A stretch of DNA of 40,394 nucleotides from an uncultured Candidatus Saccharibacteria bacterium (GCA_964366535.1 CAYIUC010000004.1:1-40394), one strand, 5' to 3'. Positions 6,255-39,560 are shown, counted from the first letter of the stretch. Made by a program: numbers and translations. The notes: generated from the letters alone by a model not told the origin.

Positions 6255-7655
6255 TTACCGCGGCAGTACGGCAAGTATTTCGCTAGCAAGCCGGCGATCC
6301 GAATTGCCGTCAAGCCGGTAGCACTGCTCGCTTGTAAGCCGTTCGCGCGAGGCGCGGTCGCGCTCGGGGTTTGTAATGTATTCGCCAAGCGCCGTTCGGA
6401 GCTTAGCAAGTGATCCTACTAGACGGATACCGCCAGTCGCCGCCGCTTTCTGATAATGTGTGGATTGGTAGTACGGGTGCATACGCGATATTTCTTTTCC
6501 GTCTTTGATATCAAAGTTTATATTAATCACAGGCACACCGGCAACGGCGGCGTCAATGCTCAAACTTGTGTAGTAACACACAACCGCGCTCGCATAATGC
6601 AAGCTGTTGCGCAAACGCGCGAGGTCTGATTCTGTCATATCCCAATTTTGACCGCGCGTGCGCGCGAAGCGAGCGTCTGGAAGCGCTTCGCGAAACTTGA
6701 CTCCGGGTATGTCGTATACAATGCGTGGATGTTTCGGCCATTCCTCAAGATGCACTGGGTCATTCGGATGAAAACGCACGAGAAGGTACAGATTGCGTTC
6801 GTTGAAAGCTCCTGACTCAAACCATTCGGCAAGAATAGACACGAGCGCGCGGTCTAGCTCCGGACGAGTCGTATCAAAGTGCGCGCCGAGCGGCGCATAA
6901 AGAACAAACCGCGCATCTTGCGGCAACCCAAGCGAAGAAAGAAACTCGCCGCGTTTCGCAAACGGACCGCGCACGAGGTGATCATGCTGTACGGTGCCGC
7001 AGACGCGTACGCGCTCTACGGGCATATCTGCATACTCGGCGAGCTCGGCGCGCACAATTTCATTAAACGCAATGAATCGGTCGGGCAAATGGCGTAGCAT
7101 CCAGCGAGTTGTAACGCGATCCCAAGTATTCACAAGCCCCACAGAGAGTACTCCTCGGCGTTTCGCTTCGCCTAGAAGCGCCGCTTCTTGGTCGTCAAAC
7201 AAATCTGCAAGAAATATTAGGTCGGGTCGGTATTCTTCAAACACTGTCGCGTACTCTTTGTGCATTACAAGATGCTTGTCTGCAAAACGCGCGATGCGGC
7301 GGAACCACGACCGTGCGAATGCGCGGTTGAAAAGTAAGCTAAACGCAAAACGAGCGGCGCTACCGTTCTCCTCGTAGTGTACGCGGCGGCGCAAATCCAC
7401 GGTCTTAGTGCGCAATAGATACATCTTTAGGCGCGAGAAGAAACGCTCCGCGCGCGTGCGCACAAACGGCGGCAGTACAACGATGGTCGTTTCGGGATTA
7501 GCGCACATCGCGCGGTACACATCGGCAAGCTGTGCGTTGCGAAAGAGTAGTACTATTCGCACTCCATGCTCTTCGCGCAGTAGATCGTACACGCCGGTGC
7601 GTATTATATTTTTCGCCTCTACGCCCGAAAAGAGCGGGATAAAAATGGTCTTCAT
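6255..7655 (-). CDS. GT-B fold transferase, TagF/CDP-glycerol-phosphotransferase-like ('WD-motif' paralogue 1); candidate ulosonic-acid transferase
   Basis: 'NTWDRVTT', 'VRFHP', 'TSLSIDAA', C-terminal 'YRLDGNSDRR'; directly upstream of neuB. Start at ATG 7655 (MKTIFIP). Confidence 0.7.
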   Translation of the reverse strand: MKTIFIPLFSGVEAKNIIRTGVYDLLREEHGVRIVLLFRNAQLADVYRAMCANPETTIVVLPPFVRTRAERFFSRLKMYLLRTKTVDLRRRVHYEENGSAARFAFSLLFNRAFARSWFRRIARFADKHLVMHKEYATVFEEYRPDLIFLADLFDDQEAALLGEAKRRGVLSVGLVNTWDRVTTRWMLRHLPDRFIAFNEIVRAELAEYADMPVERVRVCGTVQHDHLVRGPFAKRGEFLSSLGLPQDARFVLYAPLGAHFDTTRPELDRALVSILAEWFESGAFNERNLYLLVRFHPNDPVHLEEWPKHPRIVYDIPGVKFREALPDARFARTRGQNWDMTESDLARLRNSLHYASAVVCYYTSLSIDAAVAGVPVININFDIKDGKEISRMHPYYQSTHYQKAAATGGIRLVGSLAKLRTALGEYITNPERDRASRERLTSEQCYRLDGNSDRRLASEILAVLPR

Positions 7656-7703
7656 GTACCCTCTAGTAAACCACAAAAAACCCCTTTCTGTTATGCATTT
7701 TCC

Positions 7704-7727
7704 CGTTGAGCCGAAGGATGAGCCGAT
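7704..7727. repeat. 24-bp direct repeat, copy 1 (CGTTGAGCCGAAGGATGAGCCGAT)
   Basis: Identical to 8584-8607; contains internal tandem TGAGCCGA x2 with a 12-bp period. Confidence 0.9.
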
Positions 7728-8134: not shown

Positions 8135-8143
8135 AGAATTTTA

Positions 8144-8621: not shown

Positions 8622-10406
8622 TTAGGAGGCGGAGGCGGCGCGGAGGGCGCGGGAGAGATAGGAGTCGGGATTTTTTTGGAGTTCTGCGGGGCTTCCCTCT
8701 TCAACCACTTTTCCGTTTTCAAGCGCAATGATTTTGTCGGCATCCAAAACGGTAGTCAGGCGGTGCGCGATTATTAGCACCGTCACTTCTCCGCGCAAAG
8801 ACGCAAGCGTGTCTTTAATACTCCGTTCCGACTCGGCATCAAGAGCGCTTGTCGCCTCGTCTAGCACGAGCACGGCGGGTTTGCGCGCGAGCGCGCGCGC
8901 GAGAGCGATGCGCTGGCGCTCGCCGCCAGAAAAACGCGTACCTCGCTCGCCAACCACAGTGCGCAAACCCTTTTGGAGCGACCCCACCAATTCTCCTATA
9001 TGCGCCTTTTCGCACGCCGCGAGAATATCCGCATCCGTGATTGAAGAATCGTAGAAACGAATATTCTCCGCAAGCGTATCGTTTCGTAGAAACGCTTCTT
9101 GAGGAACATATATAACGCGGCGGCGCCACGCTCCCGCCGAAATAGTCCGCGCGTCTACACCGTCCAACATAATGCGCCCGCTAGTTGGCGTAAGTAGCCC
9201 GAGTAGCAAGTCCACCAGGGTCGTTTTGCCCGCACCGGACGGACCTACAATGCCGACTATTTCTCCGCGGCGCACGCGAAACGAAACACCGGTAAGCGCC
9301 TCGCGCGCGCCGTCGTAGCTAAACGAAAGCTCATCTGCAGCAAGCTCGCGCGAAAACGCAAACGGCAAGTTGCCTCCGGACGGCGCTGTGTGCGCGCGAA
9401 TATCGCGTAGCGCGCCGACCACCTCTTCCGCCGATGATAGCGACTCAAGCACGACCACAATTCCCGACTGCATGTTGTTTATATTGCCGAAAATACGGCT
9501 CACCATATACACGATTGCGATAAACGATACAAGGTCAAAAGGAAGATAGAGATAAGAAACCGCAAACACGCACAAAATGAATAGTACCGACACTGGCTCA
9601 AACGAAAGCTTGGTGACAAGCTTCACAAAGTACTTGCGAAACTCAGCGCGCTCCACGGCTTGGAAGATTGGCCTAGACGCGCTGGCGACCTCTCGCTCTA
9701 CGCCGAGCGCCTTCACGGTTTTAATGCCTATAAGCGTCTCTGCGAGCCCGTGCGAGATCCCCTTGCCAAGCGTGATGAGCGCGCGCGTGTCGCGACGAAT
9801 CTTCCGCATAAGCGGCAATACTCCGATAATTAATCCCGTACCAAGAAGAATTGTCAGAACTGTAATCTGCCATGAAAGCGCAAACGCAACCGCTAGGTAC
9901 ATAAGTGAACTTCCGACAGAAAGTACGAGCCCGATGCAATCGTCAAAAAGGCGCGCCGACTGCTTCGCCTCAAACATAACAATGTGGTTAAGGTGCCCCG
10001 TCTTTTGCGCGCGCAAGTAAGAGAAGCTTGTGCCGAGAAATGCTTCGTAGAGACGGCGGCGCAAGGCGAGTTTGTACTGCGCTATCGTGCGCCCGCGCAT
10101 ATATCCCGACACGAACAATACGAGCGTTTTCAATAAAAAAGCGATTAATGTAAACACAAGTAGCGTTTGAAACGAAAAAGGAATTCGGATAAACGAGAGC
10201 GCGGAGGAAATGGCGGATACTGCAAAATTGGAACCAACCTCGCCTCCCTTTAGGAAGACGGTAAAAAGCGGCACAAGCAAGCTTACAGATACACCGTCTA
10301 GAAAACCGCTCATAAGGCCTAGCACCGCTAGCCCAGATAGGCGCGTGCGGTAGCCCGCAAAAAGCGTTTTGAAAATATACCAAAAGCGACTGATGCGTTT
10401 TTTCAT
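8622..10406 (-). CDS. ABC transporter, fused TMD-NBD (MsbA/PglK-like glycan flippase/exporter)
   Basis: Multi-TM N-terminal domain, Walker A GPSGAGKT, Q-loop YVPQE, signature FSGGERQR, Walker B LVLDEATSALD, H-loop IAHRL. Confidence 0.92.
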   Translation of the reverse strand: MKKRISRFWYIFKTLFAGYRTRLSGLAVLGLMSGFLDGVSVSLLVPLFTVFLKGGEVGSNFAVSAISSALSFIRIPFSFQTLLVFTLIAFLLKTLVLFVSGYMRGRTIAQYKLALRRRLYEAFLGTSFSYLRAQKTGHLNHIVMFEAKQSARLFDDCIGLVLSVGSSLMYLAVAFALSWQITVLTILLGTGLIIGVLPLMRKIRRDTRALITLGKGISHGLAETLIGIKTVKALGVEREVASASRPIFQAVERAEFRKYFVKLVTKLSFEPVSVLFILCVFAVSYLYLPFDLVSFIAIVYMVSRIFGNINNMQSGIVVVLESLSSAEEVVGALRDIRAHTAPSGGNLPFAFSRELAADELSFSYDGAREALTGVSFRVRRGEIVGIVGPSGAGKTTLVDLLLGLLTPTSGRIMLDGVDARTISAGAWRRRVIYVPQEAFLRNDTLAENIRFYDSSITDADILAACEKAHIGELVGSLQKGLRTVVGERGTRFSGGERQRIALARALARKPAVLVLDEATSALDAESERSIKDTLASLRGEVTVLIIAHRLTTVLDADKIIALENGKVVEEGSPAELQKNPDSYLSRALRAASAS

Positions 10407-11587
10407 ATAGTTGATTTTTGCGCGCGGCGCTTCATAAGATCCGCAAAGGCGTCATATACTGCATCAACGGAGATTGCGCGCGCCGCCGCGCGGCGCGCGC
10501 TTTCTTGACCCGGGCGTTTTATAACAAACGAAGACGGAGCGTGCGGAGGCGGCGGAAGCACTTGGATGCTTTTCTCATCTTTCGGAGGCTGTTCGTTTGG
10601 CTCAACGGGACCGATAATGTCTACGAGCGGAATGCCTAGCGCGTGCGCGATGTAGATTGAACCTGTATCTACTGCAACAAATAAATGCAATCGTTTTATA
10701 AGCGACGGCAATTCTTCAAGAGTAAACTCTGTCGCCGCGACGGCGCTTGAGCCATGCGCCATCATAGATATAACACGCGTCACTATGTCAATATTTCGCT
10801 CGCTGTCTATAAATACAACGCGCGCGTTGTTTTGTACGACCATTCTGTCCGCAAGTTCTGCGAACCGTTCTAATGGCCATTCCTTAACGCGATTGCCTGC
10901 TGTAACGGTGATCCCAACCACAAGGGGCGTGTCGTGAAGCGCGTGCGTGCGCAAAAACGCATCTGCATGGCGCTCGCCTTCTTTTTTAACAAATACCTCT
11001 TTAATTGGAGACGAAAAAGGAACGCCGAGCATGGCGAGCAAGTGTACATAGTGCGCCTGTAGAAACGAGCCGTGTTCATAATTAACGCGCGATGTGTTCC
11101 ACCAATCGGTAAGTTTTTCCGCTAGCGTACGCTCGCTCACAGTCGTTTTTATACGCACTGGAGCGGCGCTCGCAAGCGTTGCAAGATTTCCGAAAGGATT
11201 GTTCGCAAGCGCGACGCACGCATCAAATCTTTGCTGATACAGAAACCAGAATAGCCGCCCGCGACCCAATACTCCCTTGAATGGCGGATTGTTCATAACA
11301 ATCAACTCGTCTATGCGCGGGTTGTTACGGATAATTCCCGCTGCATTCTTAGCGGCGAGCACCGACAAACGACATTTTGGATATTGGAGCTTTAGAGCGC
11401 GAAACACAGTTGTTGCGCACACAAGATCGCCGACTCGCGTCATAATTGGAATTACGAGAACGCGCGCCCCGCCTGTGCCACCGCGCGCCGCGTGTTTGCG
11501 CAGACGCGCTACACTCATAAGCACCGGAGACAACGCAACCCCGAGCAATGCGTAGACAATAAATCGCCATCGTTCTCCCAAAAGCAT
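10403..11587 (-). CDS. Glycosyltransferase family 9 (heptosyltransferase-like)
   Basis: 'RVGDLV...FRALK', 'KEWPLERFAEL', 'VDTGSIYIAHALG' GT9 motifs. Confidence 0.85.
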   Translation of the reverse strand: MLLGERWRFIVYALLGVALSPVLMSVARLRKHAARGGTGGARVLVIPIMTRVGDLVCATTVFRALKLQYPKCRLSVLAAKNAAGIIRNNPRIDELIVMNNPPFKGVLGRGRLFWFLYQQRFDACVALANNPFGNLATLASAAPVRIKTTVSERTLAEKLTDWWNTSRVNYEHGSFLQAHYVHLLAMLGVPFSSPIKEVFVKKEGERHADAFLRTHALHDTPLVVGITVTAGNRVKEWPLERFAELADRMVVQNNARVVFIDSERNIDIVTRVISMMAHGSSAVAATEFTLEELPSLIKRLHLFVAVDTGSIYIAHALGIPLVDIIGPVEPNEQPPKDEKSIQVLPPPPHAPSSFVIKRPGQESARRAAARAISVDAVYDAFADLMKRRAQKSTI

Positions 11588-11596
11588 AGTATTTTT

Positions 11597-13372
11597 TTAT
11601 TTCTTCTCTGCAATCCAATTGCCAATAACAAGCGCATCCATTCCAGTATTTAGAAAGCAACGAAGCGCGTCTTCCGGCGTTTCTACAATCGGCTCGCCGG
11701 CATCATTAAAAGAAGTGTTCAAGACGAGCGGCACACCTGTTTCTTTCTCAAATGCCTGTAACATTTCGTAATACGGAGCATTTTGTTCGCGCGTGACCGA
11801 CTGGATTCGGCATGAGCCGTCCACATGTACAATAGACGGCACGAGTTTGCGTTTTTCCAGAACGACCTGTGCAGCAAGAAGCATAAATGGACTCAGGTGC
11901 TTGAGCTCAAACCATTCTCGCTGTTTCTCTGCAAGTATAGACGCGGCAAAAGGCCGCCACGGCTCGCGATGCTTCACTTTCTTGTTTATAATGTTCGCCA
12001 TTTCTGGATTGCGAGCATCGCCAAAAATAGAGCGATTTCCAAGCGCGCGCGGACCATATTCGCTTCCACCTTGGAACCACCCAGTTACCTTACCTGCCGC
12101 TACAAGCCGCGCCGCCTCTGAAGATGGACTTGATGAATGATGAAATGCTATTTTTTCTTGAAACTTATTCAAAGCCAGAGAAACTTCAGCATCGGTGTAA
12201 ACGCGCCCGAGCGACGCACTCTTCATCTCCCAGAAACGCGGCATACCAAGTAACATATGTGCGCCCCACAATGCACACCCAAGCGGGATGCCGGCATCCG
12301 ACGCGGCGGGCTGAACGAACAGGTGTTTAAAACCTGCGTCATCCAAGAAACGCTTGTTCGTATCAATATTCAACCCGCCTCCGCCGGCGACCACCAAGTT
12401 GTCGGAGTCGGTGATTTCTTTTAATTGTCTCGCGAGAAGTAATACTGCTTCTTCAAAAACAATCTGTGTAGCGCGAGCAACCGATGCGTAATAACGGTCT
12501 GGAAGCGGCTCGTCCACGCGCGCTGGATGTGAAAATACTAGCGGTGAAAATAATCTTGGACGGAAAACAGTATCAAGACCGAGAGGTGAGAGATAATTAA
12601 ATATATTTAGATTTAATTTTTCAAAAAATGCGCGCACTGCTGTTACAAGCCACTTCTCGCGCTTTTTGCGCAGTATACCGCCTGCAAACTGGAATTGCGC
12701 GTTGCAGATAGCATGGCCGTTCATTTCTTTAAGCCATCGCGACATCGGGAACAATTCCAAAAACGATCGGTCGCCATACGGCGCAAGTCCCATCATTTTG
12801 CCTTCATTGTACTGCCCCATATTCAAATATGATTCGGAGACAAGCGAGTACATTTTTGCAGGACCAAAAGTAAACGGGAAAATGGACTTGCGGCGTACAT
12901 GCATCGTTTTACGCACCTCGGTAATACCCCCTGCTCGACCGCGATATAGTGTCTCCGTCTCAGTCGCAAGAACGCCCAAATGCGTTTGTATCTTTTCTCC
13001 TGCTCCATCTACCACCAAAATCGCCGCTTCGGTAAATGGAGAACAGAAAAAAGCAGAAGCGGCATGCGCATCGTGATGGTTTATTACTTCCATCCTTGCG
13101 CGTCGAAACCGCTCACCTGTGTTTTGGAGAAAAATCGCACGCATATCCTTAAAATCACGATTGCCAGTTTGGTCAATAACCACAAGGTCTATATCTGCAG
13201 CCGAAATGTTTGCGCTCGTTAAACAGTAATCAATCGCTCTGGACGGGAAAATACTCGGCGAGTGTTTAACACGGCAGAGCCGTTCTTCGGAGATTGCAAA
13301 GACATGCTCCCCCGCTATGAGCGCGGCGCCGGTGTCATGTGCAGTTACTTTTAAACCGAGGATATTTGCCAT
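11597..13372 (-). CDS. O-carbamoyltransferase, NodU/CmcH family
   Basis: HDTGAAL, EERL.R.KH, HHDAHAASAF, DGAGE, EGKMMGLAPYG, GPRALGNRS, KHREPWRPFA, LNTSFN. Confidence 0.93.
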   Translation of the reverse strand: MANILGLKVTAHDTGAALIAGEHVFAISEERLCRVKHSPSIFPSRAIDYCLTSANISAADIDLVVIDQTGNRDFKDMRAIFLQNTGERFRRARMEVINHHDAHAASAFFCSPFTEAAILVVDGAGEKIQTHLGVLATETETLYRGRAGGITEVRKTMHVRRKSIFPFTFGPAKMYSLVSESYLNMGQYNEGKMMGLAPYGDRSFLELFPMSRWLKEMNGHAICNAQFQFAGGILRKKREKWLVTAVRAFFEKLNLNIFNYLSPLGLDTVFRPRLFSPLVFSHPARVDEPLPDRYYASVARATQIVFEEAVLLLARQLKEITDSDNLVVAGGGGLNIDTNKRFLDDAGFKHLFVQPAASDAGIPLGCALWGAHMLLGMPRFWEMKSASLGRVYTDAEVSLALNKFQEKIAFHHSSSPSSEAARLVAAGKVTGWFQGGSEYGPRALGNRSIFGDARNPEMANIINKKVKHREPWRPFAASILAEKQREWFELKHLSPFMLLAAQVVLEKRKLVPSIVHVDGSCRIQSVTREQNAPYYEMLQAFEKETGVPLVLNTSFNDAGEPIVETPEDALRCFLNTGMDALVIGNWIAEKK

Positions 13373-13391: not shown

Positions 13392-14720
13392 CTACTTCAT
13401 TAATGCTTCGAGTATAACACGGAGCAAGCGTTCGCTTGATTTTTGGTCCAAGCGGTATGCTTGCTGTTCGGCAACGGCATTGCGCGTTGCGCGGTCGGAA
13501 TCCGGCTGTGCCAGATATTTCCCCAATGTTCGGCGAAGACCTTCCTCACTGTGCGCCACGGGTATTCCACCGACAATTAGCGGTTGCATATGATCGAGTT
13601 CGTGCAGCCGTGCAACGCTTTCCCAATAGGGCTTCTCGGTCGGGTCAAACCCGATAAGTATAACTGGCTTTTGGAGTACGAGCGCATCAACTGCAATGCT
13701 TGAGAATACTGTGAGTACCACATCGCTCGCGCAGATTGTTTCAACCAGATGTCGATCGTCATTTGCAGACAATTCCGCAGTTTTAAGCGCCGCCACGGAA
13801 GTACCAAGCGCTGTACCTGGCCGTTCCACAATCACATTTGCTGGAAGCGTGCCAAGCGACACCGTGTCTGTGGGCGGCAAACGCACCAAGATGATATGAG
13901 TGTCGGGAATATTCTGAGCCAATAGGCGAATCATCGCATCATCAAATCCTTTGCCGAGTTCGCCTTCTCCAACTTTTATAATTCTATCGCCGAGCGGCGC
14001 ATAGAGAACGCAGCGCTTTCCGCGTGAATTTAACTCCTTTTGCACGCTGTTTCTCAATTTGCATATATAGCGATCATAGTGCGGGACACCTACGACACGA
14101 ATGATTTGTTCTGGAATTCGATGAATCAAAACCGCCTCTTTTTTTATAACTTCGTTATTCACGACAAGTATATCGGGCACAACGCGAAATCCGCCCTTTG
14201 TCGTAAGGTTGTCCCACGAACGCACCATACCGATTGTGCGCACGCCGCGGCATTTCGCCTCATGCGCGATGCGGCAATCTGCAGAGCCAAAGATATCTGC
14301 AGTAAAAACAAGCGACGGATGATAGGTCTTAAATATATCTGCGTACGCATGCCTCGGCATAAGTAGCCAGTATACGAACGGAATAAAAGGACGCGCTGCG
14401 CGCGCAAAAGGCGACAGTATGCGGATAATCCATTCGCGCTCAAAACCAAGACGCATTTTGCGCATAATGTAGAGTGAACGAGTACGCACCGCCGAAATTG
14501 CGATGTCTTTAAAAAGAGCGTCTAACCGGCGAATTCGCCCTGGCACACCAACAATGACTACATTTGCCGCGCCATATTCTCTTTGCAAAAAATCTCTCTT
14601 TTTTTCTGGACACACAATTACTATGCGTAAACCAGATCGTTCTTTCAGTTCATTAAAAAACGGCGCGGCAAAAAGATTGCGCGAGACGAAAGGGTGGAAA
14701 CAAGTAATCATGACGGTCAT
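13392..14720 (-). CDS. GT-B fold transferase, TagF-like ('WD-motif' paralogue 2)
   Basis: 'RSWDNLTTKG', 'VVGVPHYD', 'VRLPP', 'SSIAVDA', 'YRLDQKSSER'. Start at ATG 14720, ATGA-coupled to the upstream gene. Confidence 0.7.
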   Translation of the reverse strand: MTVMITCFHPFVSRNLFAAPFFNELKERSGLRIVIVCPEKKRDFLQREYGAANVVIVGVPGRIRRLDALFKDIAISAVRTRSLYIMRKMRLGFEREWIIRILSPFARAARPFIPFVYWLLMPRHAYADIFKTYHPSLVFTADIFGSADCRIAHEAKCRGVRTIGMVRSWDNLTTKGGFRVVPDILVVNNEVIKKEAVLIHRIPEQIIRVVGVPHYDRYICKLRNSVQKELNSRGKRCVLYAPLGDRIIKVGEGELGKGFDDAMIRLLAQNIPDTHIILVRLPPTDTVSLGTLPANVIVERPGTALGTSVAALKTAELSANDDRHLVETICASDVVLTVFSSIAVDALVLQKPVILIGFDPTEKPYWESVARLHELDHMQPLIVGGIPVAHSEEGLRRTLGKYLAQPDSDRATRNAVAEQQAYRLDQKSSERLLRVILEALMK

Positions 14721-15376
14721 AGTGGTTTTGGTTTCTGAAATATAAAATATGCTGTCTGTCCGAATAATTTCGAATGTTTTAGAAAACGCTTTGTAAACGG
14801 TATTCTGAAATGTTTTGAACGAAACGGAAACTCGTACCCCCAAAAACCGCTTGCGACTGGCGTAAAAGATGTAAAAATCTTTTGCAAGGTCGTGTGTGTA
14901 AAAGGAGTGAGGTGTGAGTTGTTATGATGATACCGCGGCATTTCTCCTGAAAATAAGAACTGCAACCGGCTCCTTAGGTTAAAGACATTTGGTATGGACA
15001 CAAAAAGGATCCCCCCATCTTTCAAAACGCGCGCGGCTTCGCGTGCAAAATGGAATGGATTTTCCAAATGCTCCAATACATTCCACAAAGTTACCGCATC
15101 ATATACGCGGTCTTGAAAAAGCCATGCAGAATTTAGATCTTGCGCGACAAAAGATCCGACGCGTGTGCGTGCTTGCTCCGACAAAAAATTCTTTCCGTCG
15201 ACAGCATCCACCGCAAAACGCAGTGGCAGTGTGTCAATAAAGAAACCATTGCCGCTACCAACATCAAGTAGATGCGGCGTAGTAATGCTTGACGGGGTAA
15301 ATCGCTCCACGAGTCGTGACGCCTTTCCTCGATGCGTTATGGTACTACCCTCTTTTATACTCCAATCTTCTTTCAT
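14717..15376 (-). CDS. Class I SAM-dependent methyltransferase
   Basis: LLDVGSGNG, 'YDAVTLWNVLEHL', 'RVLKDGG', 'SIPN'. Confidence 0.85.
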   Translation of the reverse strand: MKEDWSIKEGSTITHRGKASRLVERFTPSSITTPHLLDVGSGNGFFIDTLPLRFAVDAVDGKNFLSEQARTRVGSFVAQDLNSAWLFQDRVYDAVTLWNVLEHLENPFHFAREAARVLKDGGILFVSIPNVFNLRSRLQFLFSGEMPRYHHNNSHLTPFTHTTLQKIFTSFTPVASGFWGYEFPFRSKHFRIPFTKRFLKHSKLFGQTAYFIFQKPKPL

Positions 15377-16515
15377 GATTTTTTTATTGCATGTCTGTAT
15401 AAAGCAAGCATTGCGTCAGTATATTTCTCCCATGAAATCTCACGCTCCACAAATGCACGCCCATCATTCGACAGGCGCGCGTAAAGCGCCCTGTCTCGTA
15501 AGAGCGCAGCTAGACAATTGGCGATACTTTCAGCAGAACACGGATGTGAAAGCAATGCGTTTGACTTGTCAGTAAGCACTTCTGAGGCGCCGGCGCTCTG
15601 CGACACTACGACAGGCAGTCCGCTCGCCATTGCTTCAAACACCGCAAGCCCCCAAGTTTGTAAGTGACTCGGAAACAAGAAAATATCTGCATTTCTGTAT
15701 CGCTCCACCAGTCCGGCCTCGTTTGCTGCACCAACAAAAACCACACGATCAGAAATCTCAAGCTCTGTGGCTTTATGTTGTAGTTCTTGATAATAAATGC
15801 GTGCATCTTTTTTATGTGTGTAAGAACCACTGATGGTCAGATCAACATCAAAGCCATCTCTTATGAGCCGCGCCAAAGCTTCAATCGCATCCTCAAATCG
15901 GCGATGTCTATAAAAAAGCGCGTGACAGAGTATGTGCACTATTCTTCCTTGCGGCAATGTACGAGCGTAAAAAGGAAATCTGCTTACATCCAAACCGCTA
16001 CGCACCACCGTGCTTTCTAAACCGAGATAATGTGCAATCTTCTCTTGCGTCCCGCGATTGAGTACGGCAACCGCATCGGCACCACCTACGAAGAATCGCT
16101 TCTTTGCATATTGATCCTTACACCACTGCACCGCGCGTCGCATAGGAGAAAAATGCTTACCGCTGTACTCGCGCATGAGCGACCATTGTGCAATATATAA
16201 ATCATTTATCATAAGTACAGAGGGAATGCGCCGAATATTTCTGCGGAAGTACGCGGCGACCTTGAGCGGCGCTTGTTCGTGCGGATTGAGCAGGTCTGTA
16301 TCTGGCGCAATTGCTCGCGCAAGTAAGTGTACTTTCGGCGCTGTAACGACGGCCATACCACGCAAAAGTTCTGGGTAACAGGTAGACGCGTTATAAGAAA
16401 AAGTGTATAGAGTCGCTTGATGTCCGCGCAATATTAGTTCGCGTGCAAGCATTATCGCTTGTCGCTCTGTGCCTCCAGACACTACCAATTGATGCACTAT
16501 GATTGCTATTTTCAT
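15373..16515 (-). CDS. Glycosyltransferase family 4
   Basis: 'GGTERQ', 'DIFLFPS..QTWGLAVFEAMASGLPVV', 'SWEKY'. Confidence 0.9.
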   Translation of the reverse strand: MKIAIIVHQLVVSGGTERQAIMLARELILRGHQATLYTFSYNASTCYPELLRGMAVVTAPKVHLLARAIAPDTDLLNPHEQAPLKVAAYFRRNIRRIPSVLMINDLYIAQWSLMREYSGKHFSPMRRAVQWCKDQYAKKRFFVGGADAVAVLNRGTQEKIAHYLGLESTVVRSGLDVSRFPFYARTLPQGRIVHILCHALFYRHRRFEDAIEALARLIRDGFDVDLTISGSYTHKKDARIYYQELQHKATELEISDRVVFVGAANEAGLVERYRNADIFLFPSHLQTWGLAVFEAMASGLPVVVSQSAGASEVLTDKSNALLSHPCSAESIANCLAALLRDRALYARLSNDGRAFVEREISWEKYTDAMLALYRHAIKKS

Positions 16516-17921
16516 ACAGATGGCAAATGCGCGTATGCGAGCAAGACATCGGCGACACGCGCGCTCGCTTGCCCATCTAATTTATAACAGAGTTCAGCAC
16601 ACATCTTCTCTCGCGCCGCCGCATCGCGCGACGGATCTTCCAGATATTCGCCCAAAATGAGTTTGAGTCTCGGAAAATCAAAAGCTTCTTTTAGCGCGCC
16701 GAAACGAATCACATCTTGAAAGTGCTCAAACCCGCGGAATCGACGTATAGAGCGGTGGAATGGGCGCACCTCATTCCCATCAAACGGAGCCGCTACAATG
16801 GGTCGCCCGAGAATTGCCGTTTCCAATAGCGCGGTTGAGTACACTGCCATTACGGCGTGCGCATGCCGCAAGATATTTACGAATCGTTTTAATTCTCCAA
16901 GATAGTTGGGAAGTTTTGTGTCGTAGAAAAACACTCGCGGGTGTTCCTTAAAGCGCAGGAATTTTTCTTCATCAAACTCTTTGTCTTTGCCGCGAGAACC
17001 AATGTATGGACGCACGACGAGGTATGTATCGTCGCCATACACCCCCGCATCAATCCATTTCAAAATCTCTGCAATAATGTCCGGCTCGTCAGGACAATAT
17101 GCGCTTCCAGATACATACACAATGTAACGCGCCTGCGCGGGGAAACCCATGTGTATCAACATTTCTTTACGCGGAATCACATACCTTTCATTCACCAAAA
17201 AGTCGTATTGCGGATACCCAACGATAGAAACTTCATTTGGATAGTACCCCTGAAACGCAATCGCGGCATGCCGCATCTGTTCGCTCGCCGCGAGGAAATG
17301 AGTCGCGCGGAACGGAAGATAATATTTATCAATATGGTCCCACCCCGCCGATATTCCTAGCGTATGCACTCCTTGACGCCGCGCTTCAGGCAGTACATGG
17401 CGGTCAAAACGATTGTATACACTGGATACGAGCACTACAGAAGGACAGTAGCGCTCAAAAAGAGCCTGGAACGGACGCGTGCGATATGCCACAAAATAGA
17501 ACTTCGTCGCTAGGCGCTCGCGAACGAAACGGCTCCTACCAAAAGTTGCGGCAATAAGCCGCTTAATGGGGTTCAACCACCTCTTGCCTCCAGCTGGCGG
17601 CTCACCAGGGCGCATACCCATAGTCGCTAGAATTTCCGTCGTCTTCGTATATAGAAGATACGAAGAGAAAAAGAGGTAAAGTCGCTGGAGCAGTGTGCGT
17701 CTGTAGTTCAAAAGCACCGGCTCCATAATAATTCGCTCGTTCCACACATCCCCCAACTCCGCGCGATAACGCTCGTAATCCTTTGTATTAACCAATACGA
17801 CAACTCGCAGGCGCGAAGAATCTTCTACCGCTCTTTTAAGAATATCAAACACACATCCAGGAAAACCGAAAAGATTCCGAAATTCCAGAGGAGACGGAAG
17901 TGTGATAAAAAGCGTGCGCAT
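16512..17921 (-). CDS. GT-B fold transferase, TagF-like ('WD-motif' paralogue 3)
   Basis: 'AGWDHIDK', 'IVGYPQYD', 'VRPY', 'STALLETA', 'YKLDGQASAR'. Confidence 0.7.
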   Translation of the reverse strand: MRTLFITLPSPLEFRNLFGFPGCVFDILKRAVEDSSRLRVVVLVNTKDYERYRAELGDVWNERIIMEPVLLNYRRTLLQRLYLFFSSYLLYTKTTEILATMGMRPGEPPAGGKRWLNPIKRLIAATFGRSRFVRERLATKFYFVAYRTRPFQALFERYCPSVVLVSSVYNRFDRHVLPEARRQGVHTLGISAGWDHIDKYYLPFRATHFLAASEQMRHAAIAFQGYYPNEVSIVGYPQYDFLVNERYVIPRKEMLIHMGFPAQARYIVYVSGSAYCPDEPDIIAEILKWIDAGVYGDDTYLVVRPYIGSRGKDKEFDEEKFLRFKEHPRVFFYDTKLPNYLGELKRFVNILRHAHAVMAVYSTALLETAILGRPIVAAPFDGNEVRPFHRSIRRFRGFEHFQDVIRFGALKEAFDFPRLKLILGEYLEDPSRDAAAREKMCAELCYKLDGQASARVADVLLAYAHLPSV

Positions 17922-19486: not shown

Positions 19487-19488
19487 AG
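19064..19488. repeat. 425-bp perfect direct repeat, copy 1 (5' part of GT2-B)
   Basis: Line-by-line comparison with 19954-20378 shows no mismatch; offset 890 bp. Confidence 0.95.
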
Positions 19489-20376: not shown

Positions 20377-20378
20377 AG
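19954..20378. repeat. 425-bp perfect direct repeat, copy 2 (5' part of GT2-A)
   Basis: Identical to 19064-19488. Confidence 0.95.
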
Positions 20379-22993: not shown

Positions 22994-23054
22994 ATCTGTG
23001 TTATGCTATTTCTGGAAACAGAACATTTAATCTGAAAAAGAGAAAGGATTGCGT

Positions 23055-24005: not shown

Positions 24006-24023
24006 CTCTCGCTTCCACTCACC

Positions 24024-25208: not shown

Positions 25209-25213
25209 AAAAA

Positions 25214-27918: not shown

Positions 27919-28621
27919 CGACTTACGGCATATACCCATTATTGTATTATGCGGCGGACAAGGCACTCGCTTGCAAAGCGTTATTAGTGACAAGCCGAAA
28001 GTTCTAGCGCCGCTCGGTAAGAACACATTTCTAGATACGCTAATTGACTTACTACATGCATCTGGATTTCAGCGAATTATTTTGAGTGTAGGATATCTAA
28101 AAGAGCAAGTGCGCGAACACTGCACCAAGCACAAATACGAGGTTTTATTCTCCGAAGAAGACGAGCCATTGGGCACCGGCGGCGCGCTTAAAGCGGCTCG
28201 CTTGCTTACTTCGCACGACAATGAATTCTTTGTTATGAACGGCGATACTGTGTGCCGACCCGACTTTCGCGCTATATACGACTTCCACAGAAAGATGGGC
28301 GGATTGATGTCTATGATGATTGCCCCTGCGTACGAAGGCGATGGAGGAGATGTGGCGCTACTTGACCACACTAGCCGCATTGTATCATGGCGCAAAAAGA
28401 TGCCTAGTGACGCTGGAAAAGCTACTTTTGTAAATGCAGGAGTGTATCTTATGGACAAGGAAACAGACAGGTTTTTCCCCAACCGACACGCATTCTCGCT
28501 CGAACGAGATGTCTTTCCATCGCTCCTAGTTGAGCCATGTTATGGGTATCCAATCAAAGAACCTCTAATAGACATAGGTACGCCAGAACGCTACACGCTC
28601 GCACAAGCATCCTTTTCGTGA
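27905..28621 (+). CDS. hddC: Sugar-1-phosphate nucleotidyltransferase, HddC-like (heptose-1-P guanylyltransferase)
   Basis: LCGGQGTRL...PK, EDEPLGTGGA, NGDT, NAGVY, SLE.D, IDIGTPE.Y. Start at ATG 27905. Confidence 0.75.
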   Translation: MQTSSDLRHIPIIVLCGGQGTRLQSVISDKPKVLAPLGKNTFLDTLIDLLHASGFQRIILSVGYLKEQVREHCTKHKYEVLFSEEDEPLGTGGALKAARLLTSHDNEFFVMNGDTVCRPDFRAIYDFHRKMGGLMSMMIAPAYEGDGGDVALLDHTSRIVSWRKKMPSDAGKATFVNAGVYLMDKETDRFFPNRHAFSLERDVFPSLLVEPCYGYPIKEPLIDIGTPERYTLAQASFS

Positions 28622-28636
28622 TAAGTTTGTGCTCGT

Positions 28637-29617
28637 ATGATTGTAGCGCGATCTCCTTTCCGAATAAGCTTCTTCGGCGGCGGCACCGACCACCCAGAGT
28701 TCTTCCTAAAAGAAGGCGGGGCGGTACTGTCAACGGCGATTGATAAATTCGCCTTTGTTACTGCGAATCGGTTTTTGAGCCATATGTATGATTACGCCAT
28801 TCGGCTTTCGTACAGCAGTGTTGAGCTCGCGAAGCGTGTTGATGATATTGAACACCACATCTTCCGAGAATGCCTGCGGCGATGCGGTATTCGCAAAGAC
28901 ATCGCCCTGCATAGTATTTTTGATACGCACGCATTTAGCGGGCTCGGCTCGTCGTCTGCATTCACGGTGTCGGTACTCCACGCCCTGCACGCCTTCAACC
29001 AAGAATTTATATCGCCGGAGGAACTTGCACGCGAAGCTATTTTTGTGGAAAGACAAATGGTGAAGGATTTCGTTGGATACCAAGACCAGATCTCTGCTGC
29101 ATACGGCGGTTTTAATTTGATTGAATTCAAAACGAAACGCGATTTCATCGTTCGGCGCGTCCCGCTCTCCACTGCGCAAATCGTGGCATTGGAGCAACAC
29201 CTCTTTATGGTCTACACTGGCATAGTGCGCAAGGCGTCGGACATTACCGCGCACCAAATCAAAAAGATATCCAACAACACCGAAACGCTCCGCGCAATGA
29301 AACAAATGGCGTACGACGGATACCACATGCTCGTCGAAAATAAACCGATAAGACAATTCGGCGCATTACTGAACGAAGCGTGGGAGCATAAACGCTCTCT
29401 AGATGGTTGCGTCTCCAACAACACCATTGACGCTCTTTACCAAAAAGGGCTCCGCGCGGGAGCGTGGGGAGGGAAACTGCTTGGTGCGGGCGGCGGGGGC
29501 TTCATTCTATTCTGCGCACCGCCAAGCGCCAAAGCACGGCTTATACGAGCATTTCCGCACAAGCAGATACTGCCGGTGCGCATTAATGCACCCGGCTCGC
29601 AGATTCTTTTTTCGTAG
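28637..29617 (+). CDS. hddA: GHMP kinase, HddA-like (heptose-7-phosphate 1-kinase)
   Basis: PFRISFFGGGTD, SGLGSSSA, GYQDQ...AYGGFN, GKLLGAGGGGF. Confidence 0.82.
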   Translation: MIVARSPFRISFFGGGTDHPEFFLKEGGAVLSTAIDKFAFVTANRFLSHMYDYAIRLSYSSVELAKRVDDIEHHIFRECLRRCGIRKDIALHSIFDTHAFSGLGSSSAFTVSVLHALHAFNQEFISPEELAREAIFVERQMVKDFVGYQDQISAAYGGFNLIEFKTKRDFIVRRVPLSTAQIVALEQHLFMVYTGIVRKASDITAHQIKKISNNTETLRAMKQMAYDGYHMLVENKPIRQFGALLNEAWEHKRSLDGCVSNNTIDALYQKGLRAGAWGGKLLGAGGGGFILFCAPPSAKARLIRAFPHKQILPVRINAPGSQILFS

Positions 29618-36069: not shown

Positions 36070-36828
36070 ATGTCAGAAATGTCAATCCCGACTCAGGTAG
36101 TCATTCTAGCCGGCGGCAAAGGTGAACGGCTTATGCCTATAACAGCGCACATGAACAAAGGAATGGTACATGTTGCAGGCAAGCCGTTTTTGGAGCACCT
36201 TATTCTCCTTTTCAAGAAAAACGGCATACGGCGATTTTTGATTTTGACTGGCCACGCATCAGAAAGCATTACCGATTACTTTGGCAACGGAAAAAAGTGG
36301 GGGGTGGATATTGCCTACCGCCACGCGCCAAGCGCATGGAACCACGGCAAGCGGCTTGCGGACGCGCTCCCGCTTTGCGACGACTTTTTCCTCCTCCATC
36401 GCAACGACATTTACTGGCCGTTTAATTTAACCAGACATCTTGCGCGTTTTAACGAGGCGGGGCTTCCTGCAATGATGACCGTGTACCGCAACCGCGCAAA
36501 AGACGGCATCTATGGGCCCGACAACAATGTGCGTGTAAATGAAAGCGGCGTTATTGAACGATACGACAACTTATTGTCATCTGATTCTTTTTACCGTGGT
36601 CAAGACCTTGGTTTCTTTTTATTGACGAAAAAAGTGGCGGAGGAATATATGCCGACAAATACGCCAGATGATTATTGCCTCCACCATGGCTTCTTTAGTA
36701 CGCTTGCAAAAAAAGGGCTTCTTTCCGCATTTATTACTGACACACCCGCAACGACAACCACCGATGCAGTATGGCTCAAAAAAGCAGAGAAGTACCTACG
36801 AGAGAAGTTCGCGGACAATTCGCTCTAA
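36070..36828 (+). CDS. Sugar-phosphate nucleotidyltransferase (second, divergent copy)
   Basis: VILAGGKGERLMP...K.M..V.GKPFLEH, 'YFGNGKKWGVDI.Y', 'NDIY'. Confidence 0.8.
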   Translation: MSEMSIPTQVVILAGGKGERLMPITAHMNKGMVHVAGKPFLEHLILLFKKNGIRRFLILTGHASESITDYFGNGKKWGVDIAYRHAPSAWNHGKRLADALPLCDDFFLLHRNDIYWPFNLTRHLARFNEAGLPAMMTVYRNRAKDGIYGPDNNVRVNESGVIERYDNLLSSDSFYRGQDLGFFLLTKKVAEEYMPTNTPDDYCLHHGFFSTLAKKGLLSAFITDTPATTTTDAVWLKKAEKYLREKFADNSL

Positions 36829-38166
36829 GCACGCGCCGTCTGTATACCCCGCTTGTTCACGAGCAATGCGTTCCCGACCCGCCGAATGAAGCGACGGAGT
36901 AGATAGATATGCACGAATTGCCGCAATAAGCTCATCGGCGCTACGCGCGCGCCATATGCCGCCGGTACGCCCCAAGTCCGATAAATGATTCCACGAGAAA
37001 TACCGAGCCGCGCCATTCCAAAAGTCCGCACCCTCTGGACCAAAAGCCAGCGCAACGAGCGGCGTTCCAAAAATCGCCGCTTCTACAAAAAATGTGGAGC
37101 AAGCTGTAACAACTACAGACGCATGCGCCAGAGAATTGCGCAGTAGCGCGAGTGAGTGTTTGTCAAATTCCCATGCGTCTTTACCTTCTCCTACCCGAGC
37201 GACCGGCGGCTCAATAAGGAAGCCAAAATCGGTGCGAATACGCTCATATTCGGCAATGCTAAGTTTTCGCTTCGGGTACGGGCGCACGAGGATTTGTACA
37301 GCGTCTCGCGATAACGCACCCGCTTGAAACGCTCCCGCCAAAACAGCCAGTGCTTCAAAATCAGCATCAAAACTCGCCTTGCCTGAGAACGCAAATAGAA
37401 TTATATTCTTTCCGCTAGACGCTCCGAGCGAATCGCAAAATACTTCGCGGGATACTATGCCTTCGCGCTTGAAATGCCCATCATATTGCGGCGCGCCGAC
37501 TACAGTGATATCCGACAACGGATAATCGCCGAAACTGACGGCATCTCTTTTCATAATCTTAGTTTGCACGAACAAGCGGTTCGGCGGTACGCGGAGAAAT
37601 GTTTTGGAAGTAAGATTATCCCAACTTGCTGGCATGCCTACAGTATTGATACCGCGGCGGCGCGCCGCGGCGATAAGCGCATACTCGCCGCCATAAACGA
37701 GCGTCGGACAAAACACTATATCGGGTCGATGGCGCGCGAGAACCTCATAAAAATCTCGCGGAGCACACAGTGCGTACGCGCATCGAAATATATAGCGATA
37801 CGAACGAAAGTGCCCGAGCGACCAAAGTGTCATACGAAACAAAAAACCAAGCATGCGCACAAGAAAATGTGTTTTAGTGCCGCGCCGTCTGAAATAAAAC
37901 CAATGCATCAGATACACAGTACTCGTCGGAAGCGACGCGTGTTCGCAAAATGCCCATGCGCGTTCTAATCGAGACACTGCACCTCGCGGTAGAACATCCC
38001 ACGAAATATACGGCGATGTAAATTGCGAGCGGTAATACTGGAGCTTCTCGCGCGGCGAGAGTAGTACTAGCCGCACGCCGCGCGATGCAAGTAACTCTGC
38101 AAATCCGCCGCGCAAGAAGTTTCGCGCGATGGACCCGTTGCCTACAGGCATAAGAATTGTTTTCAT
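36796..38166 (-). CDS. GT-B fold transferase, TagF-like ('WD-motif' paralogue 4)
   Basis: 'ASWDNLTSK', 'VVGAPQYD', 'VRPYP', 'STFFVEAA', 'YTDGACLER'. Confidence 0.7.
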   Translation of the reverse strand: MKTILMPVGNGSIARNFLRGGFAELLASRGVRLVLLSPREKLQYYRSQFTSPYISWDVLPRGAVSRLERAWAFCEHASLPTSTVYLMHWFYFRRRGTKTHFLVRMLGFLFRMTLWSLGHFRSYRYIFRCAYALCAPRDFYEVLARHRPDIVFCPTLVYGGEYALIAAARRRGINTVGMPASWDNLTSKTFLRVPPNRLFVQTKIMKRDAVSFGDYPLSDITVVGAPQYDGHFKREGIVSREVFCDSLGASSGKNIILFAFSGKASFDADFEALAVLAGAFQAGALSRDAVQILVRPYPKRKLSIAEYERIRTDFGFLIEPPVARVGEGKDAWEFDKHSLALLRNSLAHASVVVTACSTFFVEAAIFGTPLVALAFGPEGADFWNGAARYFSWNHLSDLGRTGGIWRARSADELIAAIRAYLSTPSLHSAGRERIAREQAGYTDGACLERIVRELLS

Positions 38167-39560
38167 AGTTGTTTCATTTTTAGAGCAATAGTTTGTTCTA
38201 TTTCTTGCGCGGCGAGTTCACCCGCGCTTACATCGCCATTCGTCGGCGGTAAAATATAATCTCGTAGGAATACTTCGCGCGCCGCTTTGGTTTTGTCGTG
38301 TCCCGATAGTAGTGAGCCGACCTCGCTGGCAAATTCATCGCCAGTGCGAAAAACAGTCGCCGCTCCACTTCGCACCAAGTGCGCGAAATGTTCTGCATCT
38401 TGCAACGCTTTATACTCTTGACGAAGCATCACAAACCCCGGCTTTCCCTTAAGCATCGCGTCAATAATGCCGGTAGTGTGAATCGTAACCGCCGCCTCTG
38501 CGTAGGTAATTGTTGCAAGCAAGAGTTCTACTCCTTCCGGAGTACCAATCGGCACGGGCTTGTGCGGGCACACGACAACTCGCTCTCTTTTATAACTACT
38601 AAATGCAACAAAATTGTTCGGCGCCGGCCGTACTACAAGATAGGCGTTTGAGACATCGGGGTCTTGTGATGCATCCATACCGAGGCGCAATTCATCCACC
38701 ACTTTAGTGCTATCGCCCGTCACCGCCCCAGAGCCGAGATATAATATATATTTGCGCTCTGTAGGAACTCCGATTCGACTGCAAAACGCATCGCGAGATT
38801 CGCGCGGAGCGCGCAAGGCGCGCCAACCATCAAACTGGTAAGCTCCGACAATTCGGATGCGTTCGCGCGGCACTTTATGATGCCGCACTGCTTCGCGCAC
38901 CTGCTCTTCATTCCATACGAGAAGAAGATCAGGAAGGATTTGCAACAACCCCTTGCTTGAAAGGTTGTCCCACGATGGAGTAGGAACGATCGTCTGGATG
39001 CCCAGATACCGAGCCGCCTTGAGATAATCCAAATCAGGCGACGAACTTGGGCGATTGCGAAAGGCTACAAGCACAGCGGCGGGTCTGTACGCGCGCATTT
39101 GCTCGAGCATCTTTGGCACGGGAGGCGCGCACCATTCTACAAAACGCAAGAGCCAGTCTACGAGACGGCTTGCAAGCACTTTTTCTAAAAAAGGAAAAGT
39201 GCGTAGTATTTTTTGAATCGTGCGCGGCATAAATCTAAAGCACAATTCTTCATAAAACGGCGCGCGTGATTGCAGGCGTATAAAACGCCGATAGTTTAAC
39301 ATCTCACGCACAGGTCGTAGTATGCGCTTCCATACGCCGCCGCGGCGAACGCCATGCACCCAAATAAAACCTTGATTATCGTGCGCAAACGCATCTAGCA
39401 CTTGCACAGATGAGGCATCAAGCTCACGAGGACTTGGGTCAAACGCCGCTACTACAGCGAATCCACGTGCAAGAAGGGCTAAAATCATACTTCGGTAGGT
39501 TTTTAGATACCCCGCCGAGCGTATAAAAAATAAAATGGTGCGCGATTCTGAATTGTGCAT
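38163..39560 (-). CDS. GT-B fold transferase, TagF-like ('WD-motif' paralogue 5)
   Basis: 'PSWDNLSSKG', 'LVWNE', 'IVGAYQFD', 'VRPAP', 'TTGIIDA'. Start at ATG 39560. Confidence 0.7.
   Translation of the reverse strand: MHNSESRTILFFIRSAGYLKTYRSMILALLARGFAVVAAFDPSPRELDASSVQVLDAFAHDNQGFIWVHGVRRGGVWKRILRPVREMLNYRRFIRLQSRAPFYEELCFRFMPRTIQKILRTFPFLEKVLASRLVDWLLRFVEWCAPPVPKMLEQMRAYRPAAVLVAFRNRPSSSPDLDYLKAARYLGIQTIVPTPSWDNLSSKGLLQILPDLLLVWNEEQVREAVRHHKVPRERIRIVGAYQFDGWRALRAPRESRDAFCSRIGVPTERKYILYLGSGAVTGDSTKVVDELRLGMDASQDPDVSNAYLVVRPAPNNFVAFSSYKRERVVVCPHKPVPIGTPEGVELLLATITYAEAAVTIHTTGIIDAMLKGKPGFVMLRQEYKALQDAEHFAHLVRSGAATVFRTGDEFASEVGSLLSGHDKTKAAREVFLRDYILPPTNGDVSAGELAAQEIEQTIALKMKQL

Follow-up and report, generated by a model that had tools for sequence, protein, structure and literature searches.

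TagF-like GT-B proteins of a bacterial surface-glycan locus as putative CMP-ulosonate transferases

Few bacterial transferases for nonulosonic acids are known, and they are not easily recognised. Excerpts of PMC7439481 state that CAZy holds few sialyltransferase families and that a bacterial transferase for legionaminic acid had yet to be reported at that time. In TagB, TagF and TarL, which use cytidine diphosphate (CDP)-polyols, two histidines are invariant and essential; in TarL, H300 (H444 in TagF) acts as the base and is stabilised by the preceding W299, and H433 protonates the cytidine monophosphate (CMP) leaving group (excerpts of PMC10901376). In Tannerella forsythia, knockouts of Tanf_01245 and TFUB4_00887 lose a terminal pseudaminic acid or legionaminic acid derivative, and a TagB-type domain was noted in these transferases by Tomek et al. 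(2017; excerpts of PMC5420450). Here we describe five paralogous proteins encoded in a 40,394-bp stretch of DNA, hereafter the window, from an uncultured Candidatus Saccharibacteria bacterium (contig C4:1-40394 of a 663,692-bp, 44-contig genome rated 99.9% complete). The bacterium, from groundwater, falls by its relatives within the Patescibacteria (Parcubacteria/Paceibacteria type). An earlier reading of the sequence alone had proposed that the five transfer a CMP-activated acid sugar. Taking into account the co-occurrence with NeuB, the gene neighbourhoods, the nearest curated family and the absence of TagD, we lean towards the view that the family, paralogue 1 included, represents putative CMP-ulosonate transferases, with the strongest case made by paralogue 1 and the clade of its orthologues.

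Five paralogous GT-B proteins without the TagF-type N-domain histidine

The five genes are all on the minus strand, and their probable starts were judged from the alignment. Paralogue 1 (6255..7655) encodes 466 aa from the ATG at 7655, although its open reading frame (ORF) extends to a TTG at 7676 (6255-7676). Paralogue 2 (13392..14717; ORF 13392-14843) encodes 441 aa, paralogue 3 (16512..17921) 469 aa, paralogue 4 (36796..38166) 456 aa and paralogue 5 (38163..39548; ORF 38163-39674) about 461 aa. Paralogue 1 sits 41 bp upstream of a NeuB gene (4657-6213), as the sequence-only reading had noticed for one of the five; paralogue 2 lies directly upstream of an adjoining carbamoyltransferase gene, the stop of paralogue 3 overlaps the start of a GT4 glycosyltransferase gene by 4 bp, and paralogues 4 and 5 overlap each other by 4 bp. 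All ten BLASTP pairs among the five were significant (E 2.5e-10 to 1.9e-55, 23-30% identity), which shows that the proteins are homologous and do not share their motifs by chance. When a hidden Markov model (HMM) of the five was run against the 2,053 ORFs of the genome, no sixth copy was found.

The ordered motif set described from the sequence was recovered with two exceptions. The first motif, [S/T/G]WD[N/R/H], reads TWDR (residues 177-180), SWDN, GWDH, SWDN and SWDN in paralogues 1 to 5, the second, G-x-x-[Q/H]-x-D, reads GTVQHD, GVPHYD, GYPQYD, GAPQYD and GAYQFD, and [S/T]-x-x-x-[D/E] was found by alignment in all five. VR-x-x-P is present in four and is replaced by VRPY in paralogue 3. 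The C-terminal motif Y-x-(L)-D-x5-R is likewise present in four, the number given from the sequence; the protein without it is paralogue 5, the most divergent of the five.

The AlphaFold model of paralogue 1 (alignment of 52 relatives; mean predicted local distance difference test score 92.3) consists of two Rossmann-like domains, and with paralogue 1 as the modelled representative the five genes are predicted to encode GT-B enzymes. The top PDB matches of the model in Foldseek were UDP-N-acetylglucosamine (UDP-GlcNAc) 2-epimerases (E about 1e-12). In a VIA-align fold comparison over 48,161 chains the following Z scores were obtained: 23.5 for NeuC (5zlr; root-mean-square deviation 3.7 over 326 residues), 22.2-23.1 for other UDP-GlcNAc 2-epimerases, 21.0 for TarL (8va1; 18% identity), 19.6 for WaaA, 19.0 for TagF, 16.1 for Bcs3 and 15.6 for a polysialyltransferase (GT38). 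Sequence comparison with PDB entries gave marginal matches: a profile of the five matched a 2-epimerase (E 1.8e-4 over 94 residues) and a profile of 52 members matched TarL (E 1.2e-4), while a profile of the N domain matched TagF at E 0.0068 and had as its best match 9wde, a GT28-type glucosyltransferase (E 0.0045). A phmmer search with paralogue 2 gave no match to PDB sequences at E<=10. No convincing transmembrane segment was found in any of the five paralogues. In paralogue 1, the 82 residues of the helical segment inserted into the N domain include 18 Lys/Arg versus 8 Asp/Glu, an excess that suits a membrane-peripheral enzyme.

Resemblance to TagF, which the sequence-only reading had claimed for all five, was borne out in part: paralogue 2 scored 40.1 bits with PF04464 (cut-off 22.1 bits) and was the sole one to pass; paralogue 3 (18.8 bits) and paralogue 1 (15.6 bits) stayed below, and paralogues 4 and 5 did not match, so that the likeness is weak. 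The family shares with TagF, TarL and TagB (PF04464; PDB 3L7I, 8VA1) the GT-B fold, including the helices that interrupt the N domain, and the segments G-x-P-x-x-D, Y-A-P and S-S-x-x-x-E/D can be aligned with TarL/TagF. It differs from them in having no N-terminal polymerase domain.

A further difference concerns the histidines. No invariant or nearly invariant N-domain histidine was found in 52 aligned members; instead, the family has a Trp-Asp motif, with Trp in 267 and Asp in all of 269 members. At the loop position after V-R, where the histidine of an 'HP' motif might be expected, the 269 members have P in 92, Q in 84 and H in 63 cases. Other positions are far better kept: R301, S/T371, D/E375, H407 and R444 (473-aa numbering) in 256 to 269 of the 269 members. 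The histidine among them (H400 in the 466-aa numbering), which is not that of the loop position, is kept in 256. Retention of the TagF-type catalytic histidine, which would have spoken against the sequence-only reading, was thus not seen in the N domain.

NeuB and CMP-synthetase genes accompany the family

Of 401 sampled genomes of the class, 73 had the family (called at E<=1e-10) and 117 had NeuB. NeuB was found in 68 of the 73 family-positive genomes versus 49 of the 328 family-negative ones. The family-positive genomes span 25 GTDB families, in 23 of which NeuB accompanies the family in one genome or more. Among 19 genomes of the same order, a single one (G171) has the family, and the same genome is the only one with NeuB. 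The one genome of the same genus that was searched (G401, 99% complete) has neither the family nor NeuB, which indicates that the whole locus is variable within the genus. Two of the five family-positive genomes without NeuB have CTP_transf_3, in one case 5.5 kb from the family gene.

The same association was seen at the level of gene neighbourhoods. A Pfam scan of 288 flanking ORFs in 20 stretches (up to 20 kb, from 20 genomes) around family genes detected CTP_transf_3 in 17 stretches, NeuB in 14 and at least one of the two in 18; canonical Epimerase_2 was present in ten, NTP_transferase in one, and stand-alone PF01467 and IspD in none. An unselected sample of 51 loci, picked out of GTDB representative genomes with peptide patterns of the family as the sole criterion, was scanned with HMMs made from the NeuB and CTP_transf_3 proteins of the 20 neighbourhoods. 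NeuB was found in 26 of these loci, CTP_transf_3 in 30 and either in 31; when only loci with at least 19 kb of sequence were considered, 23 of 28 had NeuB or CTP_transf_3.

Enzymes for CDP-polyol supply did not show such coupling. A TagD-type cytidylyltransferase had been reported missing from the window, and the same was true of the genome, whose sole PF01467 match was an RfaE-domain-II-like protein of 213 aa. TagD (TIGR01518) scored above its cut-off in none of the 401 genomes, and weak TagD-like matches occurred in 43 of the 73 family-positive and 141 of the 328 family-negative genomes, i.e. with little association. IspD/TarI was found in neither of two genomes searched, that of the window included, the control being positive in 13 of 14. 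Unlike in TagF/TarL systems, no CDP-polyol pathway was found in the family genomes; taken together, the 401 genomes and the 20 and 51 loci show that the homologues go with NeuB/NeuA-type genes and not with TagD.

In the window the ulosonate genes form a compact module on the minus strand. The NeuB-family ulosonate synthase (4657..6213, 518 aa) is fused to a C-terminal cupin domain (Pfam NeuB 6.8e-45, Cupin_2 1.7e-11), and the NeuB and PseI models of NCBIfam match it far below their cut-offs. It is followed by a HAD-family phosphatase (3961..4623; HAD_2 2.2e-10), a CMP-ulosonate synthetase (3061..3822; CTP_transf_3 5.4e-25; nearest model PseF, 128 bits with TIGR03584, under the cut-off of 205.7) and a Gfo/Idh/MocA-like oxidoreductase of 354 aa (1980..3044), which travels with the module. 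This order, from the family gene to an oxidoreductase of about 355 aa, recurs in loci L045, L049 and L052; in the latter two, oxidoreductase-like proteins adjoin CTP_transf_3 and NeuB-cupin, and the HAD phosphatase is also found beside the module in L038, L039, L042, L045 and L050. The composition of the module suggests a phosphorylated route resembling that of ketodeoxynonulosonic acid (Kdn), with an extra redox step, in which the phosphatase would dephosphorylate a phosphorylated ulosonate. Kdn as the sugar is proposed on the basis of the NeuB-cupin fusion and the HAD phosphatase. The cupin domain itself gave weak matches of the D-lyxose/mannose-isomerase type. The CMP-ulosonate synthetase had been put forward as the only recognisable cytidylyltransferase of the window; it is recognisable as such, but the window has two more NTP_transferase genes (27881-28621 and 36070-36828), so that it is not strictly the sole candidate activating enzyme.

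The evolutionary relations of the paralogues were examined in a quick IQ-TREE analysis of 36 family proteins, which were left after two of 38 (the five of the window and 33 neighbourhood matches) had been dropped for falling outside 380-600 aa. The window's five paralogues fell into separate groups. Paralogue 1 belongs to a clade of nine rows with 100% support in the SH-like approximate likelihood ratio test and groups with the family genes of L045, L049 and L052. The clade of paralogue 3 has orthologues from G320 and G039, and that of paralogue 4 from G039, G320 and G253; paralogues 1, 3 and 4 thus have well-supported orthologues in other GTDB families (G320, G039, G253, G043 and others). Paralogue 2 was loosely placed, and paralogue 5 forms a long branch of unsure placement. 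Distant genomes repeat this set of four or five orthologue groups as tandem arrays, which shows that the duplication is old. The five probably work as a team whose members differ in acceptor or linkage, or in donor.

Donor, nearest relatives and rival explanations

The family is very large. In a search of 1.84 billion proteins the profile of the five matched 9,505 cluster representatives at E<=0.001, at least 2,458 of them at E<1e-30. Where members are named in the database, the name is 'CDP-glycerol glycerophosphotransferase family protein'. Some members are tandem doublets of about 900 aa and others carry an additional GT4, methyltransferase or polysaccharide-deacetylase domain (among P0121-P0126, P0143, P0184, P0207 and P0239), an architecture that fits glycan-building transferases. 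No fused cytidylyltransferase was found among 12 long relatives, in which the partner was a GT4, methyltransferase or deacetylase domain or another copy of the family protein.

Among curated families, NF046086 (BFO_1060 family glycosyltransferase) comes nearest, having matched 52 of 52 members in an NCBIfam scan (best E 6.9e-18); with the same 52 members and E<=0.01, TarL matched nine, TarF five, TarB four, TIGR03568 (NeuC) three and wecB two. In the window NF046086 scored 33.9 bits with paralogue 4, 28.8 with paralogue 5 and 24.2 with paralogue 1 (cut-off 200), and it was the best NCBIfam match of paralogues 4 and 5. The T. forsythia proteins Tanf_01245, TFUB4_00887 and BFO_1060 are, like the family studied here, TagB-like GT-B proteins encoded beside CMP-nonulosonate genes (excerpts of PMC5420450). 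They differ in their conserved residues, the motifs given for their C-terminal part (DXD, D/E-D/E-G and HP; same excerpts) not being the conserved set found here, and in distribution, since the T. forsythia family is from Bacteroidota and present in one copy, whereas the family described here is from Patescibacteria and has four or five conserved paralogues per genome. Given this precedent of 2017 (excerpts of PMC5420450) and an NCBIfam model that is the best match of all 52 members, albeit far below its cut-off, to call the family uncharacterised, as the sequence-only reading did, was an overstatement. Literature searches found no account joining glycerophosphotransferase with CMP-nonulosonic acid. 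The listed titles on ulosonates of the Candidate Phyla Radiation or Parcubacteria included none on this family, and by title and abstract it is not described in the literature on pseudaminyl- and legionaminyltransferases or on TagB-like and TagF-like proteins.

Known types of ulosonate transferase were looked for in the genome. The proposed donor class, CMP-ulosonate, is that of GT30 (WaaA), GT38, GT42, GT52, GT80, GT99/GT107 and Maf, and WaaA and the GT38 polysialyltransferase are GT-B relatives that appeared among the fold matches (Z 19.6 and 15.6, see above). Models of GT30 (PF04413), GT38 (PF07388), KpsC/S (PF05159, through which GT99 and GT107 were covered) and Maf (PF01973) had no match in the genome, with positive controls; GT42 (PF06002), GT52 (PF07922) and GT80 (PF11477) had no match either, but these three did not match a control genome. 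Nor was a recognised sialyl-, Kdo- (ketodeoxyoctonate) or Maf-type transferase family found in the window or among the Pfam matches of the five paralogues. The statement that the window has no gene of a recognised sialyltransferase family therefore stood, and membership of the five in a known CAZy ulosonate family found no support among these models. With a CMP-ulosonate pathway present in a genome rated 99.9% complete, and no known transferase matched, elimination favours the five. Maf-like matches occurred in three of the 401 genomes, of which two are NeuB-positive and family-negative, with the match 5-8 kb from NeuB; these are too few to judge whether Maf replaces the family in such genomes.

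Three other explanations were weighed. The five could be ordinary GT-B transferases of nucleoside diphosphate (NDP)-sugars (UDP-, GDP-, ADP- or CDP-hexose, heptose or deoxy-sugar), linked to NeuB through a shared product and not through the donor. We doubt this, but give it some weight: there are five paralogues versus one NeuB, G320, G039 and G253 share conserved sets of four or five orthologue groups, and the window has at least two more sugar-nucleotide routes (one HddA/HddC-like, the other with NTP_transferase, dehydratase, C-methyltransferase and reductases) and only four classical glycosyltransferases. The fold, too, is equally near to the UDP-binding 2-epimerases, MurG, PimA, WaaG and TarL, and the N-domain profile has the glucosyltransferase 9wde at the top of its PDB sequence matches. 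Against an NDP-sugar donor, a nonulosonic acid transferase family is the nearest in 52 of 52 members and the remaining matched families whose donor is known are CDP-dependent Tar enzymes; NTP_transferase was found in one of 20 neighbourhoods versus 17 for CTP_transf_3; and the CMP-ulosonate pathway would be left without a candidate transferase in the genome. It is improbable that the five are true TagF/TarL-type phosphotransferases, using CDP-glycerol, CDP-ribitol or a CMP-phosphonate to make a phosphodiester polymer akin to teichoic acid. The database annotation, the PF04464 scores (above all that of paralogue 2, with weaker ones in two others), ESM Atlas neighbours labelled Glyphos_transf and the profile matches to TarL (with G-x-P-x-x-D and S-S-x-x-x-E aligned) and TagF all point that way, as do the weak TagD-like matches, which however are shared by family-positive and family-negative genomes (see above). 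At L044:2537-6078 (genome G048) there are a fusion of phosphoenolpyruvate (PEP)-mutase and cytidylyltransferase, 5.5 kb from a family gene, and a fusion of a phosphonopyruvate-decarboxylase-like protein and an Fe-alcohol dehydrogenase; this locus could make a CMP-activated phosphonate. What speaks against the phosphotransferases is that no genome had TagD above the cut-off, that the genome of the window has neither TagD nor IspD, and that stand-alone PF01467 or IspD genes were absent from all 20 neighbourhoods. In addition, the N-domain catalytic histidine, invariant in TagB, TagF and TarL (excerpts of PMC10901376), is missing, the Trp being followed by an invariant Asp, and the second, 'HP' histidine position is variable.

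The third explanation, that the five are divergent 2-epimerases or hydrolases of UDP-sugars, similar to NeuC/LegG and part of the ulosonate pathway, would account for the NeuB link, for the best overall superpositions (UDP-GlcNAc 2-epimerases/NeuC, PF02350; PDB 5ZLR, 1V4V; Z 22.2-23.5), for the 2-epimerase match of the five-member profile and for the fact that no canonical Epimerase_2 (NeuC) gene was found by Pfam scan in the window. We regard it as hardly tenable and rejected it: Pfam Epimerase_2 matches none of the five at E<=0.01; NeuC-type genes coexist with the family in the same loci (10 of the 20 neighbourhoods), where the role is already filled; a NeuB-cupin and phosphatase route would not need NeuC; and at least four copies per genome, tandem doublets and GT4 fusions do not fit a single pathway step and, unlike in NeuC, indicate transferases.

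Several points weigh against the assignment of the family as CMP-ulosonate transferases. The fold searches with Foldseek and VIA-align establish GT-B for the model and cannot separate donors. The matches to NF046086 lie far under the 200-bit cut-off and cover only about 130 positions of the N domain, in the part that surrounds Trp-Asp. SpsB, a Bacillus subtilis TagB-like protein encoded beside a legionaminic acid pathway, is dispensable for legionaminic acid transfer according to excerpts of PMC7439481. Three of the 73 family-positive genomes, G253 (88% complete), G266 (96%) and G395 (99%), have neither NeuB nor CTP_transf_3. The 401 genomes are related, so that a Fisher p value overstates the association and counts are to be preferred, and the 20 stretches were chosen after the list of NeuB genomes had been seen, with three NeuB-negative genomes included on purpose. 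Co-occurrence and adjacency could reflect no more than a shared glycan locus. As to the histidines, the alignment of the N-domain profile with TagF begins at the strand after the motif (residues 480-546) and the spacing is off by about 23 residues; since no residue-by-residue alignment of Trp-Asp with Trp-His was reached, the substitution is well founded but falls short of a demonstration. Finally, five paralogues face a single NeuB and two CTP_transf_3 genes in the whole genome, and if all five used this donor, each glycan would have four or five ulosonate residues. Because of these gene numbers and of the at least two other sugar-nucleotide routes in the locus, we leave open the claim that all five transfer the acid sugar, while the evidence supports CMP-ulosonate transfer for the family and for paralogue 1.

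If the CMP-ulosonate assignment is right, the enzymes would work as follows. The five would be cytoplasmic, probably membrane-peripheral GT-B glycosyltransferases of a very large family centred on Patescibacteria, sharing their origin with the TagF/TarL CDP-polyol phosphotransferases but with changed chemistry, CMP being the leaving group in both. The C-terminal Rossmann domain would bind the CMP moiety of a CMP-nonulosonic acid through the VR-x-x-P loop, the S/T-x-x-x-D/E helix, His400 and Arg437; the donor sugar would be the product of the NeuB-cupin, HAD phosphatase, CMP-synthetase and oxidoreductase module and is possibly Kdn-like. The invariant Asp of Trp-Asp, just after strand 5 of the N domain, may act as general base on the acceptor hydroxyl, with release of CMP. 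The acceptor is probably a growing undecaprenyl-linked glycan, which would be started by a Bac_transf initiating enzyme (contig C21) and built at the cytoplasmic face by GT4, GT2, GT9 and the five members of the family. Carbamoyl- and methyltransferases would modify this glycan, an MsbA/PglK-like ABC transporter would flip it in lipid-linked form, and one of two Wzy_C proteins of about 700 aa (contig C6) would transfer it to an acceptor at the surface. A pilin-like gene just past the window makes pilin one candidate acceptor.

Under the same assumption the family, at present named after the wrong chemistry, would gain a sequence signature (Trp-Asp, G-x-x-Q/H-x-D, V-R-x-x-P, S/T-x-x-x-D/E) and would offer new enzymes for ulosonoside synthesis and a compact case of a phosphotransferase scaffold turned into a glycosyltransferase. 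Many bacteria of the candidate phyla radiation would then devote about 6% of a 0.66-Mb genome to an acid-sugar-rich surface glycan, which would be relevant to the attachment of epibionts to their hosts. It is a further, speculative and rather unlikely step that the ultra-small, single-membrane Patescibacteria re-tooled the teichoic-acid polymerase scaffold, exchanging the Trp-His base for Trp-Asp, so that a conserved team of four or five paralogues builds an oligo- or poly-ulosonate whose linkages differ and which may be Kdn-like and bear carbamoyl or methyl groups, and that such a carboxylate polymer or pilin glycan replaces phosphate teichoic acids in phosphate-poor groundwater. Were that so, thousands of 'CDP-glycerol glycerophosphotransferase' entries would constitute a new CMP-ulosonate transferase family at the level of CAZy.

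Other genes of the locus and the genome

According to the ORF, Pfam and NCBIfam scans nearly the whole window is a single surface-glycan locus. Upstream of paralogue 1, on the same strand, are an ABC half-transporter of the MsbA/PglK/HepA type (8622..10406; all NCBIfam matches under the cut-offs), a GT9 (heptosyltransferase-like) glycosyltransferase (10403..11587) and, next to paralogue 2, a NodU-like carbamoyltransferase (11597..13372). Such a carbamoyltransferase gene stands beside a family gene also in L051:7593-9329 (G227) and near one in L054:42-485 (G395), and is a second conserved pairing of the family besides NeuB. Two small minus-strand ORFs (7790-8518) lie between paralogue 1 and the transporter: one of 114 aa that is hydrophobic near its N terminus and has a winged helix of the MarR/IclR type, and one of 124 aa with hydrophobic ends and no Pfam family. 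The remaining classical glycosyltransferases, all on the minus strand and assigned by Pfam, are a GT4 enzyme (15373..16515) and two GT2 enzymes (18590-19501 and 19483-20376).

Two sets of genes could supply other activated sugars. An HddC-like nucleotidyltransferase and an HddA-like GHMP kinase (27881..29617, plus strand; both under their equivalog cut-offs) make up another sugar-nucleotide route, which could serve as an alternative source of donor. The other is an NDP-deoxy-sugar set with NTP_transferase, dehydratase, reductases and a C-methyltransferase. The NTP_transferase at 36070..36828 (plus strand), convergent with paralogue 4, is a putative alternative donor source as well; it was considered as donor maker for paralogues 4 and 5 and set aside, having no conserved context (one of 20 loci). 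The window has at least eight methyltransferase genes: three of the FkbM family stand in a row at 20373-22993, one on the minus and two on the plus strand, and at least five others lie elsewhere. A radical-SAM/SPASM enzyme, a class I/II aminotransferase (best NCBIfam match GntC-like, under the cut-off) and a full-length acetolactate-synthase-like thiamine pyrophosphate enzyme are encoded inside the glycan locus at 23049-26932, possibly an unusual tailoring set for a branched or amino-acid-bearing sugar.

Some relevant genes lie outside the window. At the end of the glycan locus there is a type IV pilin-like gene (C4:45246-45683, L059:5247-5684; N_methyl motif, 4.6e-10), and other contigs encode the two Wzy_C proteins (O-antigen-ligase/O-oligosaccharyltransferase type; C6:19940-22484) and the Bac_transf initiating transferase (C21:3344-3880); together these hint at O-glycosylation of pilin or another protein. 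The second CTP_transf_3 gene of the genome, at C7:28833-30289 (L058:6834-8290 of G000), is paired with a protein that consists of the citrate-synthase C-terminal domain alone. In G346 (L057:11343-15187) a similar citrate-synthase-like gene is found, with ATP-citrate-lyase-like and CoA-ligase genes, near ulosonate genes.

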